Shown here in pieces: positions 31,801-34,650 of a stretch of 34,650 bases of DNA. Both the position numbers and the translations under genes were made by a program. Origin of the DNA: Elsinoe ampelina (taxonomy: Eukaryota); NCBI GenBank assembly GCA_010093995.1, contig ML992547.1:1-34650 (forward strand). The letters run 5' to 3'. Below the pieces are notes generated by a model that was given only the letters and a program-made list of their open reading frames with translations, was not told where the DNA came from and did no database searches. Every line of letters begins with the position of its first letter. Position 1 is the first letter of the stretch.

Positions 31801-33502
31801 ATTGCTGCAGAGTAGCAAGCTTCCGGCCTCAGCCGACGAGGAGTCGCTACGAATCACACTCCAGAGACTTGAGAAGAGCGATCGTAAAACTTACGAGAAG
31901 ATTCTCACAACCCTTCATACTCCCAATGAAGATCAGCGAATCAAAGACATGGCTTGGGATGCAACAGTCACTCGGGACGCAGATGCAGAAACAACCGCAA
32001 TCAGGTTGCGTCAGGTCTCTATCTTGCGATCGGTGTTGGAACCGGTGCTTCGACGACATGGAGCTGAGGAACTGCCGCAGTCCATGATCTATCCTCGCTC
32101 GACCATTTACGATGACGACTTGGGTGTGGTAAGCATGCTCGACCGGACTGGCAATCTTCTGCAGCTTCCATACGACCACACTCTGCCTCATGCCCGACAA
32201 CTGGCGAAATGGGCACCGGTTATCCCTCGCACCTACACGTTCGGACATGTACTGCGCAACACTCTTGGAGGTCCACCAAAGCAGATTGCGACCCTGAACT
32301 TTGACATCGCATCCAAAGCTGGAGAAGACAGTGTAATTTATGATGCCGAAGCGATCAAGATTCTCGATGAGCTCGTCGACAATGTTCCTGTCATGGCGGA
32401 AGATAATATTGCATACCACCTCAATCATGCCAACATCCTCAATGCGATCCTGGACCATTGCAAAGTCGAGGAGGTGCATCGAACGCCTGTCAAGAAAACC
32501 TTGTCCGAGCTCGGGTTCAACGATCGGCACTGGAAGCATGTTCGAGAGGCGCTGCGTTCTCCTCACATTGATGTGCCATCCACGACGCTTGATGAACTCT
32601 CCAAATTCGACTTCCGTCAATTGGTTGATGAGCAATTTGTTCTCAAAACCAAGAACAGGCTCAATGCTTTACTTGCAAACTCACCGGCGTGCCTGTTGCA
32701 GAGTCTCTTAGCTCTCGATCACCTCTACTCTGTCAGCGCCACTCTGGCCAAGTTTGGCTTCAACAGGTCCCTCTTCTTCGCCCCTTTTGCCTCTCATGAT
32801 GAAGCCTACTACAAGAACGGCATCATGTTCCAAGTCTTCGTAGACAAGCGGATCCGGAAAGGCTTCGGTGCGGGTGGCAGATACGACAGCCTAGTCCAGT
32901 CCTATCGCCTTCCCACAACTCCGCCAGAAACACTACCTCGCACTGTCGGGTTTCAACTCAGTCTGGATTACATGACCAACAAGTCCCTTCACCATCAAAA
33001 GAATGTCCAGACGGGTTCGAGCAAGTTCAAGGTGGATACACCAAGCTATGACCCGTTGTGGTCGTCCCGCAGGTGCGAGGTATTGATTTTCCCCGCGGCA
33101 CCGGACCTAGTGAATACAATATGCGCCAGTCTGCTCTCCGCATTGTGGGCTGCCGACATCAGCGCTGAGCTTGCGAGTTCCAGCACGGACATGGACTCCA
33201 TTTTCTTTCATCAAAAGCAGACCACTTACGGTTTCATCATCAAGGTCAACAGCGAGACGGCATCGGCCGTTCGCATCCGCAACACAGCGACAGACAGCGA
33301 CAACAAGGTCAACATTAGCGAGATTGTGTCGCACATCCGCGCCGATCTCCGCGACAGGGATTCTGCTCTTCTTAAGTCTCGTCGTCTACTACCCTCTCTT
33401 ACTCGTGGACTAGGCATTCCGGAACTTCCGCAAGAGCAGCCGATTGTAACAGGCCGTCGGGGTAAGAAGCAGCGGGAGCGCAGCGAGGGGCTAAGGAGTT
33501 AG
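28877..33502 (+). CDS. GCN2: eIF2-alpha kinase Gcn2/Cpc-3, intronless, 1541 aa, apparently lacking the C-terminal domain
   Basis: First ATG at 28877. RWD domain (ELEVLEAI...YPRTPP), charged region, pseudokinase, kinase (IGRGGFGEV, AVKKI, acidic insert, LYIPMELCE, HRDFKPDN, DFG, GTALYIAPE), HisRS-like domain (LQLPYD, GAGGRYDSLV), anticodon-binding-like fold (LWAADISAE). Confidence 0.93.
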   Translation: MATIDYAGIQAGELEVLEAIHMGDYRELPIKSAWNKTSGRAFELKLSAEEDPNVVVTLTTTFTTTYPRTPPLIEVRGLEGLHERTQERIKRIATLRPAQLVKESAGEVIMHLVVEEVKDALDDAAQARATGVLPSLEDERALMVAAHQAQEEAAREAERKRQQEAKAEADRLLQENVEREVRRKAALQAPPTPAQEGVADAGLSADVVLFEEDMEMPVAADGAVATFKGVEILSRISKTANSEELLVRPGRHLFDAVLKLRRVSILPRNVPAIKSQTSAQEKPFDFMYHLTALERELKELKKHRHPHVNIVYAFRLDRQVIPGPDSQLGWSLSILSELSNRGSLDEMLEDGQTISLLRAREWSHSLLGALNFLHNNNIVHKQINPTNIRLYRSGDGLTMPQLSGTCYNHRLDILLGNAKASKPTHWCAPEARLKPLETTHAKIDIWDFGVVMAQMLFGKDIIYTYRTPQLLLQSMQLTSLFNDLIRKFFLVEQTKRPPAFDLLLSEFFRSTEAAVQPGKEGTAELTRQVSAVDLQRPSERTSRHNSSSISERVYPLRPSHFASEFTELARIGRGGFGEVVRVRNKVDNGLFAVKKIKSRSTRELEEIRKEVALLCMLTHPYIVRYHMAWVEDDFEAGTVMSDSTRSTASDFTGTLPQPGQQPRIPHSSRGFDAMTSALNDVEFVDDESAGSVDAGGQYFDRPDSAESDDDGSDEESGSPEESDDVDRSNLQDAALNGHGDNNIVFEASSAQANEAGSERDPAEGDRTEASRLLRPSPPARLPDHAQILYIPMELCEGQTLRHLFARGMTSDPEKQWKMLRQILQGLEYIHSRGIIHRDFKPDNIFIDKDGNPRIGDFGLATTSHTAAPNVLSSSHGENTEMSRGMGTALYIAPELQKTSEAKYTNKVDMYSMGIIFFEMCFQLDTAMERDQEIRKIRAPQHSLPSAFDEPEKAEQKIVILSLITHNQAERPSSSELLQSSKLPASADEESLRITLQRLEKSDRKTYEKILTTLHTPNEDQRIKDMAWDATVTRDADAETTAIRLRQVSILRSVLEPVLRRHGAEELPQSMIYPRSTIYDDDLGVVSMLDRTGNLLQLPYDHTLPHARQLAKWAPVIPRTYTFGHVLRNTLGGPPKQIATLNFDIASKAGEDSVIYDAEAIKILDELVDNVPVMAEDNIAYHLNHANILNAILDHCKVEEVHRTPVKKTLSELGFNDRHWKHVREALRSPHIDVPSTTLDELSKFDFRQLVDEQFVLKTKNRLNALLANSPACLLQSLLALDHLYSVSATLAKFGFNRSLFFAPFASHDEAYYKNGIMFQVFVDKRIRKGFGAGGRYDSLVQSYRLPTTPPETLPRTVGFQLSLDYMTNKSLHHQKNVQTGSSKFKVDTPSYDPLWSSRRCEVLIFPAAPDLVNTICASLLSALWAADISAELASSSTDMDSIFFHQKQTTYGFIIKVNSETASAVRIRNTATDSDNKVNISEIVSHIRADLRDRDSALLKSRRLLPSLTRGLGIPELPQEQPIVTGRRGKKQRERSEGLRS

Positions 33503-34650
33503 GGAACTACCTATCTATCTCTCGACATAAGAACTCGAATAATAATCTTCCTTCTCCTCTAGTAGTCGCTATAACACAAAAGTTATATAGGTCTTTAGAA
33601 CTTTAATACTATAACTTTTGGCCTTATAGGCTAGTAGTCTAAATCTAAAAATAATATTTAGAAATATATTCTATTACTACTAATTAAGCTCTTTCTCTTA
33701 TATTATAGACTACTCTCTTATCTCTAAAATGTCTATCTCTCTTATATTTTCTATTCTATATTATACTTTACTATCTTATCTCTAAGGTATCTATCTATCT
33801 TATATTCTCTATTCTATATTATAGATTACTATTATTATAGTATAGATTACTTTCTAGTATTAAGTAGAGATACTTAAGCTTTATTACTATTATTATATTA
33901 AAGCTACTAGTCTATTATATTATATATATCTATTACTATATTAGTTCTTTATAATACTACTTATATATCTTAATATTTTTTTTTATAATAATAGCTATAA
34001 GTTAGAAAATCTATATATTAGCCTATAATAACTATTCTCTTTCTACTAGTGTCTATTCTAAATATAAATAGAAACTATCTTATACCTTAGCTAGATACTT
34101 ATTTATCTAAATAGCTCTTTCTTAGAAACCTTAAATAAAACTATTTTTAGCTATATAAACTACTACTTATTAGACTTTCTTTAATAGTAGATATAGCTAT
34201 AAGTATTAAAAGATACTAGTATATTTTTATAGTTAGCTACTATCTTCTTTACTACTATATATTACTATCTTTATAGAGTTAAAGTTAAAGTAAAAAGTAT
34301 ATTTAGTATTATTACTACTCTAGACATTATATGTCTTAGGAGGAAGAGTACATTCTAATAGTTTTACTAGAGCAGGGTTAGGGTATTTTCCTAGATTCTA
34401 ATAGGATTCCTAACCTCTATTCTTTAGGACTTTCTAAGATTTTTTCCCTCTAAATTTTTTAGAGATTACTTATATTACCTAGGTCCTCTATAATACTTAG
34501 TATTATCTAGAATTATCGAGTATTACTTCTAGAATCTAAGTTATAGTATGCTAGGACTATCCTAAAAATCTTTTAAAGTTCCTAAGAAAATATAGAGTAG
34601 AGGTCTTAGTAGCTTTACTCCTAATAGTTAGGAACTCTAGAATATCCCTA
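33445..34650 (-). mobile_element. RIP-degraded repeat block starting with a probable LTR terminus (minus-strand ...CCCCGACGGCCTGTTACA-3')
   Basis: TGTAACA at 33445-33451, then rapid decay into AT-rich TpA-dense sequence with stops in all frames. Degenerate ~58-bp tandem duplication at about 33718-33835. The RIP relic is well supported; the LTR identity and exact boundary are inferred. Confidence 0.7.

Follow-up and report, generated by a model that had tools for sequence, protein, structure and literature searches.

The gene treated here is the GCN2 gene of Elsinoe ampelina, which stands at one end of a complete 34,650-bp scaffold (the window); its closest described counterparts are the canonical GCN2 proteins of fungi and the laboratory forms from which the C-terminal domain (CTD) has been deleted. 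In the sections of the literature cited here, the yeast CTD is reported to dimerize, to dock at the 60S peptidyl-transferase center, to aid tRNA binding, and to inhibit the kinase, and it is given as the only domain essential for dimerization of full-length Gcn2 (PMC4335047, PMC12012509). Loop 1 of that domain (V1544-K1559) contains K1552, K1553, and K1556, reported there as required for 60S binding, and deletion of the loop (1538-1557) abolishes this binding (PMC12012509). The HisRS-like domain is described in the same source as a dimer by itself and as contacting the 60S subunit, the stalk base, and the sarcin-ricin loop (PMC12012509). For mammals, the part of PMC6824675 that we cite reports that mouse and human GCN2 become up to ~20-fold more active in vitro once the CTD is removed and that the core domains of human GCN2 are enough for ribosome binding. 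The E. ampelina protein has no CTD fold, and we consider it likely to be an inherited CTD-less GCN2 orthologue, probably functional, in which the loss predates the split between E. ampelina and Elsinoe fawcettii.

GCN2 is the last gene of the window, which is the whole scaffold. Its parts are listed here from the start codon on; conserved columns, in the list and below, are those that are the same in at least 90% of 22 or 23 canonical proteins.

28877..33502, plus strand: GCN2 coding open reading frame (ORF), 1,541 codons plus TAG, a single continuous frame from the first ATG
28901..29239, plus strand: RWD domain, residues 9-121 (Pfam PF05773, E = 1.6e-11)
29657..30436, plus strand: pseudokinase region, approximately residues 261-520 with limits set by eye; Pkinase matches in three stretches, 28 of 29 conserved columns kept
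30599..31831, plus strand: kinase domain with a long insert, approximately residues 575-985 with limits set by eye (PF00069, E = 9.5e-66)
32018..32905, plus strand: HisRS-like domain, residues 1048-1343 by the Pfam match (PF13393, E = 2.3e-12)
33059..33367, plus strand: complete anticodon-binding-like domain, residues 1395-1497 (PF12745, E = 1.8e-15, profile positions 1-110 of 261 only)
33368..33499, plus strand: 44-residue tail, residues 1498-1541, made up of a linker and the basic stretch GRRGKKQRER; predicted coil; aligned with E. fawcettii and canonical relatives
33445..33460, plus strand: the 16-mer TGTAACAGGCCGTCGG, taken for the end of a long terminal repeat (LTR) in the initial annotation of this DNA; coding sequence for (I)VTGRR, at single-copy depth
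33452..33481, plus strand: basic motif GRRGKKQRER, at the position of canonical HKSKKSNK (Lys-rich CTD loop 1)

The protein thus has the RWD, pseudokinase, kinase, HisRS-like, and anticodon-binding-like parts of a GCN2, including the catalytic motifs of the kinase domain (GRGGFGEV, AVKKIK, HRDFKPDN, DFG, and APE), and lacks the folded CTD. In an AlphaFold2 model of residues 1360-1541 (26-row alignment), the anticodon-binding-like fold is confident (block means of the predicted local distance difference test score [pLDDT] of 77-97 over model residues 41-140), its last helix ends at about residue 1501, and the remaining tail is coil (pLDDT 46-63). The initial annotation had counted about 45 codons beyond this fold; there are 44 after ...IVSHIRADLRDRDSA, ending ...PQEQPIVTGRRGKKQRERSEGLRS, and then the TAG. 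Across 33445 the frame continues to the stop as I V T G R R G K K Q R E R S E G L R S stop. The corresponding NCBI model (KAF2218418.1, Elsinoe ampelina) is 100% identical to the window ORF over the C-terminal query. In the kinase insert (window 30830-31180), this model, of 1,493 aa, drops two in-frame segments of 22 and 26 residues as introns; the genomic frame is open throughout this region, and contigs of the sequencing runs described below were compared only over 32000-34650.

The absence of the CTD can be read from several comparisons. In a C-terminal alignment of 16 GCN2 proteins (E. ampelina, E. fawcettii, and 14 canonical ones), all 14 canonical proteins extend for ~115 residues beyond the conserved VQVLMAQH[KR]SKKSNK motif and finish with FNFRTG..YYDLG; the E. 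ampelina and E. fawcettii proteins end 6 to 13 residues past the KK motif. The PF12745 profile (length 261) is covered over positions 1-110 in E. ampelina and 1-114 in E. fawcettii, versus 1-260 and 1-261 in E. australis and Myriangium, respectively. When 12 canonical CTDs were searched against the whole window with tblastn, the best match (E = 0.041) fell at an unrelated place (9644-9787), and none of the 30 best matches lay within 33400-34650. On the six frames of 33440-34650 (stops as X), the highest score of a CTD profile derived from 184 canonical proteins was 1.0 bit, where 200 shuffles reach 3.2. The CTD of ~115 residues is absent from the ORF and from the following 1.15 kb up to the scaffold end, in agreement with the earlier impression that no downstream frame holds anything like a normal Gcn2 CTD. 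A candidate remnant, LSLDIRTR after read-through of the stop, which resembles canonical ..AIETRD.., was dropped, as the CTD searches gave nothing above chance.

The same ending is found in a second species. The E. fawcettii protein KAF4549382.1 is likewise 1,541 residues long and ends (...LRERDAPLLKSRRPPAYLVRGNSVPETAHEPSSPVMIPPRQGRRKKNQHGF) at the same point as that of E. ampelina; its tail has 46 residues, ending ...PVMIPPRQGRRKKNQHGF (...GRRKKNQHGF), versus 44 in E. ampelina. The two tails align end to end (LLKSRR...GRRGKKQ versus LLKSRR...GRRKKNQ) with a score of 56, a value reached by 0 of 5,000 shuffles. Since the two proteins are 53% identical overall and yet share the tail, the tail cannot stem from a recent insertion. 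In a maximum-likelihood tree of 25 GCN2 proteins obtained with a quick search, E. ampelina and E. fawcettii are sisters (support of 100 in the Shimodaira-Hasegawa-like approximate likelihood ratio test, SH-aLRT) and are nested in the Elsinoaceae (100) with E. australis and Sphaceloma murrayae, with Myriangium next.

The two CTD-less proteins evolve ~4 times faster than their CTD-bearing relatives: path lengths from the Elsinoe node are 1.08 for E. ampelina and 1.18 for E. fawcettii, versus 0.26 and 0.31 for E. australis and S. murrayae. Overall GCN2 identity is correspondingly 53% for the first pair and 70% for the second, and every domain is affected. A regional mutational effect is an unlikely source of this acceleration, because the GCN2 coding sequence (CDS) has no signature of repeat-induced point mutation (RIP) and Vps18, 3 kb away, evolves normally. 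The usual RIP cutoffs are ~0.89 for TpA/ApT and ~1.03 for (CpA+TpG)/(ApC+GpT); the CDS has values of 0.42 and 1.39, respectively, at a GC content of 0.53. The neighboring gene, with Vps18 identities to E. ampelina of 95% in E. batatas, 88% in E. fawcettii, 85% in E. australis, 81% in S. murrayae, and 72% in Myriangium, is located as follows.

23557..25755, minus strand: Vps18/Pep3 exon (Pfam PF05131), used as synteny anchor and rate control

Counted by conserved columns, the kinase C lobe keeps 73 of 81 in E. ampelina and 76 of 81 in E. fawcettii, the N lobe 24 and 27 of 31, and the HisRS-like domain (residues 1040-1390) 60 and 59 of 73; both proteins keep 20/24 in the RWD domain, 10/11 in the anticodon-binding-like domain, and 3/8 in the kinase insert. 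Three close canonical relatives keep 79-81 of 81-82 columns in the C lobe, 71-73 of 74-75 in the HisRS-like domain, and 24 of 24-25 in the RWD domain. Among individual positions, a nearly invariant Thr of the activation loop is replaced by Ser in both CTD-less proteins, and a Ser two residues on, likewise nearly invariant, by Gly; residues 839 and 882 of the window protein are among the deviating conserved kinase columns, and HRDFKPDN replaces HRDLKPDN in E. ampelina alone. At the other end of the protein, E. australis, S. murrayae, and Myriangium have a Lys-rich extension of ~30 residues (MAPKTP...KGKKNEVKRK) before the RWD domain, which is missing from both CTD-less proteins.

Such figures could also describe a decaying relic, in which loss of the CTD ended GCN2 function and the rest of the protein drifts toward a pseudogene or a minor residual role. 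The acceleration in every domain and the conserved columns lost, especially in the HisRS-like domain and the kinase insert, would fit decay, as would the need for the CTD in yeast Gcn2 activation in the cited part of PMC4335047, and no E. batatas GCN2 is among the matches listed. A relic, however, would hardly have kept a 4.6-kb frame open in two species that are ~1.06 substitutions per site apart, which we infer, by reasoning and not by calculation, to be very unlikely without selection against stops; the frame thus appears to be under purifying selection. The catalytic motifs are moreover intact, the greater part of the C-lobe columns (73-76 of 81) is kept, and an RNA-like contig (of a run labeled "RNA?," which is a guess) covers the 3' 1.5 kb of the gene. 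We therefore regard a relic as unlikely and return to the preferred reading, an inherited and probably functional CTD-less protein, with the question of whether the gene truly ends where the frame does.

Four sequencing runs bear on this question over 32000-34650, namely, X1 (DNA), X3, X4, and X5; no run is recorded as RNA, the kind of X3 and X5 being given as "RNA?," a guess, and parts left uncovered in X3, X4, and X5 carry no information. The features at the gene end are the following.

33500..33502, plus strand: TAG stop codon, site of the GC-to-AT border
33503..33577, plus strand: likely 3' untranslated region; the X3 contig has its own end at 33577, 39 nt after AATAAT at 33538
33503..34650, no strand: AT-rich block with RIP-type degradation; GC 0.244, TpA/ApT 1.62, (CpA+TpG)/(ApC+GpT) 0.12; reaches the scaffold end
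34314..34650, no strand: high-copy repeat part of the AT-rich block; summed contig depth 8,390-14,327 versus 296 for the gene (DNA run X1)

With its high TpA/ApT ratio, low second index, low GC content, and sharp border, 33503-34650 is a RIP-affected AT-rich region, so that the tail is indeed followed by RIP-decayed DNA, as first proposed. The switch from GC to AT coincides with the stop codon at 33500; the stretch 33445-33502 still has a GC content of 0.62, which bears out the remark that the first ~55 nt from 33445 are GC rich. A Pfam search of the six frames of 33503-34650 (stops as X) gave a match to a family in 0 of 6, and RIP may have erased such matches. The repeat at 34314-34650 is represented by many variant contigs in run X1 and has no Pfam match. 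The RIP-degraded repeat that begins at the GCN2 stop accounts for the end of the scaffold at this place, the assembler having been unable to extend into RIP-type repeats.

This setting leaves room for a second alternative, namely, that the CTD is kept and that an intron starting at GGTAAG (33461-33466) was inflated by the repeat, with the CTD exon past the scaffold end; on this view, the intron would contain the stop at 33500, and annotation would have cut both gene models short. The hexanucleotide does resemble a 5' splice donor, and the scaffold stops 1.15 kb past the GCN2 stop, inside the repeat, leaving annotators blind beyond. Yet in run X3, which holds 0.58 of the sampled words, approximately the coding share of the stretch, a 4,413-nt contig covers 32000-33577 without a difference, gap, or joint; it passes through the putative donor with no loose end and stops 75 nt past the stop codon. 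This hints, weakly, at a 3' end near 33577 and speaks against splicing out of the region, including the splicing across the AT-rich block to an intact CTD exon that the initial annotation had considered. The E. fawcettii model, which lies on a 469-kb contig, ends at the same place; the KK.Q similarity between the species extends past the putative donor; and proteins called from genomic contigs, with 98% identity to E. australis GCN2, stay colinear with it through KSKKSNK and on into the CTD, which suggests, if these calls are unspliced, that there was no ancestral intron at this point. The fourfold acceleration, too, fits a genuine change of architecture. A fungal intron of more than 1.19 kb would be unusual. 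Taken with this evidence, a CTD hidden behind an intron is distinctly improbable.

The remaining run data concern the integrity of the junction itself. One 6,209-nt contig of DNA run X1, at the single-copy depth of 296, spans 32000-33910 without a difference and so bridges position 33445, the GCN2 stop, and 400 nt of the AT-rich block, which argues against an assembly chimera, another possibility raised earlier. In run X4, labeled as another organism, a 334-nt contig over 33150-33483 extends 38 nt past 33445; it is recorded with four differences, which are listed over the two contigs of the run at 32296 (a 270-nt contig), 33317, 33364, and 33411, two of the four being synonymous and two nonsynonymous (S1481G and L1512P). 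Run X5 covers 33035-33303 only. The abrupt end of GCN2 beside the RIP block is not an assembly or insertion artifact of this isolate.

A third alternative makes the gene a GCN2-like paralogue, with a canonical CTD-bearing GCN2 elsewhere in both E. ampelina and E. fawcettii. The NCBI name of the E. fawcettii protein ("GCN2-like") and the long branches are in keeping with this, and its gene context and the searches are not. GCN2 and Vps18 come from contigs of equal length, and were on this basis taken to be on the same contig, in 5/5 cases checked (E. fawcettii, E. australis, S. murrayae, Myriangium, and one further contig of 18,239 nt), as expected for canonical GCN2; judged by its neighborhood, the gene is the positional GCN2 orthologue. 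A canonical copy would be expected near the top of searches with the window protein and with residues 1150-1613 of E. australis GCN2, and no canonical E. ampelina or E. fawcettii GCN2 is among the best 120 matches, called proteins only; with the E. australis query, the next matches after the E. australis cluster are S. murrayae (69%) and Myriangium (52%). A paralogue is therefore very improbable, and the gene is probably the only GCN2 of its genome. In a search of representatives, no further close CTD-less relative was recovered, the next match having 41% identity.

The initial annotation had explained the ending by a fairly recent LTR-type element at 33445 that cut off the CTD, donated the VTGRRGKK... 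tail, and later decayed through RIP in all but its first 55 nt, and this we find hardly credible: although the sequence at 33445 begins with TG (its only LTR-like feature), RIP-type DNA follows the stop, the far part of the AT-rich block is high copy, and no CTD occurs anywhere in the window, E. fawcettii has a homologous tail including GRRKKNQ at the same place, the stretch 33445-33780 is single copy in run X1 with a contig continuous across 33445, the 16-mer has no second copy in the window and matches no better than chance, GC content falls at 33500 rather than 33445, and the six frames of the AT-rich block hold no retroelement domain. When up to three mismatches are allowed, one or more matches to the 16-mer also arise in 17 of 100 shuffles. 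Of the marks of an LTR element (TG...CA termini, a target-site duplication, a second LTR, and gag/pol remnants), the TG start alone is present in the window, and the far side would fall past the end of the scaffold. Other X1 contigs overlap the stretch only from ~33823 onward, and very high depth begins only at 34314, so no multicopy LTR end appears at 33445 in this run. The earlier interpretation was to fall if orthologues without a neighboring repeat proved to end in the same tail, and the E. fawcettii orthologue, which may or may not adjoin a repeat, largely does so. An LTR-donated tail is either a mistaken mechanism or one of far greater age and lesser extent than proposed. What holds of the initial annotation is its core, a natural GCN2 without the CTD fold that keeps a basic tail and adjoins RIP-degraded DNA. 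That the RIP-degraded repeat begins at the stop does not make it the cause of the CTD truncation.

The basic tail itself is most likely native sequence and not the gift of a mobile element. The stretch from 33443 (IVTGRRGKKQ) occupies the place where canonical relatives have VLMAQHKSKKSNK, and the KK pair follows the RDRD/RERD motif at a distance, counted from the sequences, of 34 residues in E. ampelina and 39 in both E. fawcettii and E. australis. The canonical motif aligns weakly with SKKANK of PDB chain 4otm_A, which is named GCN2, and the K-K-x-x-K spacing of the aligned motif is that of yeast K1552/K1553/K1556. We take 4otm to be the yeast GCN2 entry because of this spacing and because PMC6824675, in the part cited, names 4OTN as mouse. 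As the last 19 residues are insignificant by score, the equivalence of the tail to canonical HKSKKSNK and CTD loop 1 rests on position and basic character. The initial annotation had suggested that the R/K-rich tail was retained as a substitute RNA- or ribosome-binding patch; its location at the canonical motif that aligns with the 4otm_A loop makes it more likely that the original patch was retained. Past ~33473 the two species differ from each other (RERSEGLRS in E. ampelina versus HGF in E. fawcettii), and both are unlike canonical YAIV. An older insertion or rearrangement directly after KKQ (~33473) may have supplied only the last ~10 residues.

From these observations, a course of events may be proposed for the likely reading, that of an inherited loss. 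The CTD fold would have been lost before E. ampelina and E. fawcettii diverged, and both would have inherited a form that keeps the RWD, pseudokinase, kinase, HisRS-like, and anticodon-binding-like domains together with a disordered tail, 44 residues in E. ampelina, whose counterparts in canonical proteins are the linker and loop 1 of the CTD, which is rich in Lys/Arg. Since then, the whole protein would have evolved about fourfold faster and yet remained an open, catalytically intact kinase gene. The kinase would still phosphorylate eIF2-alpha and, by way of its RWD and HisRS-like parts, would keep its response to uncharged tRNA or stalled ribosomes, dimerization would run via the HisRS-like and kinase domains, and the retained basic loop would serve for RNA or ribosome contact. 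Autoinhibition by the CTD and its docking at the 60S peptidyl-transferase center would be gone, giving a set point and a mode of activation unlike those of yeast Gcn2, and the fast change in the other domains would be partly compensation. Given the architecture described, we lean toward retention of the eIF2-alpha kinase function, the rest of the probability falling to a weakened relic or to a changed role.

Several observations weigh against this reading. The yeast CTD is reported, in the cited part of PMC4335047, as essential for dimerization and activation, which argues against normal function of a protein without it. The loss of conserved columns is greater in both CTD-less proteins than in any close relative, as under relaxed constraint, and their grouping could be an artifact of two long branches in a quick tree. 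No E. batatas GCN2 is among the matches (of 847-2,697 residues) listed for the window protein, and E. batatas is the closest relative by Vps18. A stranded CTD exon may lie past 34650 or elsewhere in the genome; GGTAAG at 33461-33466 has the look of a 5' donor; and run X1 is possibly the very sample from which the window was assembled. As to the tail, its last 19 residues alone are marginal against the E. fawcettii tail (368 of 5,000 shuffles reach the score) and are not above chance against the E. australis segment (4,300 of 5,000), and the alignment of the canonical motif with 4otm_A is weak (E = 0.043). The E. batatas gene may be unannotated, split, shorter, or lost.

The rest of the scaffold is a GC-normal island of ~33 kb between two degraded repeats, the second of which lies at its opposite end.

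1..420, no strand: second RIP-type AT-rich block; GC 0.279, TpA/ApT 1.82, (CpA+TpG)/(ApC+GpT) 0.31

Between the left and right AT-rich blocks, the common matches are merely short and of low complexity (best, 25 nt), and no shared element can be defined from them. Two tandem arrays with a 12-nt period lie within the island: at 21010-21197, a P-E/D-E-L-like coding repeat in eight copies, and at 19563-19658, a run of GTGCT(C/T) within a long ORF that has no Pfam match.

Together with the black-yeast models described below, the proposal would, if correct, make the CTD, regarded as essential in yeast, a domain lost more than once in Ascomycota. Its roles differ between yeast and mammals, according to the parts of PMC4335047, PMC6824675, and PMC12012509 cited above, and a natural CTD-less orthologue could show which CTD functions the HisRS-like and kinase domains are able to assume and which residues have changed in compensation; the fourfold acceleration points to many candidates for the latter. 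The case also bears on nutrient-stress signaling in two crop pathogens, the grapevine anthracnose fungus and its citrus-scab relative. Its value would rise if complete assemblies show no CTD anywhere and the kinase proves active. For annotation, the lesson is that an abrupt gene end beside a RIP block need not be an artifact.

Set beside known systems, the E. ampelina gene agrees with canonical fungal GCN2 (S. cerevisiae Gcn2, E. australis PSK56571.1, S. murrayae PNS15372.1, and Myriangium duriaei) in the order of its domains from RWD to anticodon-binding-like, in its Vps18 neighborhood, and in having a basic motif at the position of the Lys-rich CTD loop, and it departs from them in lacking the dimeric CTD fold of ~115 residues and the N-terminal extension of ~30 residues and in evolving ~4 times faster. 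The engineered CTD deletions of yeast, mouse, and human GCN2 remove the same part that is missing here; in the sections cited, the yeast forms lose dimerization, ribosome binding, and activation, and the mammalian forms become more active in vitro (PMC4335047, PMC6824675, PMC12012509). Unlike these laboratory products, the Elsinoe form is natural, is present in at least two species, and keeps a segment that positionally matches loop 1. With respect to its genomic setting, the cited part of a study of E. fawcettii AT-rich regions (PMC7259788) describes genes adjoining an AT-rich block at a scaffold end, for 29 of 59 regions, as is the case here. In contrast to genes at RIP borders, E. ampelina GCN2 has a CDS free of a RIP signature and a normally evolving neighbor in Vps18, so RIP leakage does not explain its fast evolution.

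A screen with the CTD profile of 350 gathered GCN2-like proteins left 54 without a CTD match, most of them fragments, members of distant lineages, or ORF calls with a common end point, IVE[ED]G, soon past the KK motif, as if at an intron left unspliced. Four GCN2 calls stop at one common point just after KKxNR(R/K)xIV(E/A)(E/D)G; these are probably unspliced calls that enter an intron, and such stops caution against inferring CTD loss from unspliced predictions. A parallel to the Elsinoe form is found in the Herpotrichiellaceae, black yeasts of the Eurotiomycetes and thus another class. In a Fonsecaea/Cladophialophora cluster, eight NCBI GCN2 models of 1,466-1,474 aa (e.g., KIX96759.1 of Fonsecaea multimorphosa), annotated as GCN2, have no CTD-profile match and a short basic tail, as in E. 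ampelina, and four further relatives end alike without a CTD-profile match. These models end ~45 residues earlier than the Elsinoe proteins, directly after the last anticodon-binding-like helix, and they may represent a second, independent loss of the CTD. We found no description of a natural CTD-less fungal GCN2 in a literature search whose scope left most subscription journals aside, and no paper on the CTD-less black-yeast models. A wider proposal, which we advance tentatively and with somewhat more doubt than belief, is that the Elsinoe lineage (E. ampelina, E. fawcettii, and possibly relatives) runs its starvation response on a single CTD-less GCN2 that keeps the basic loop only and that, with the black yeasts, the CTD was lost more than once in Ascomycota, with rapid retuning of the other domains each time. 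In terms of what is already described, the family, GCN2, is known, the architecture lacking the CTD is a variant of it, and CTD-less models are already in the databases for another ascomycete lineage.

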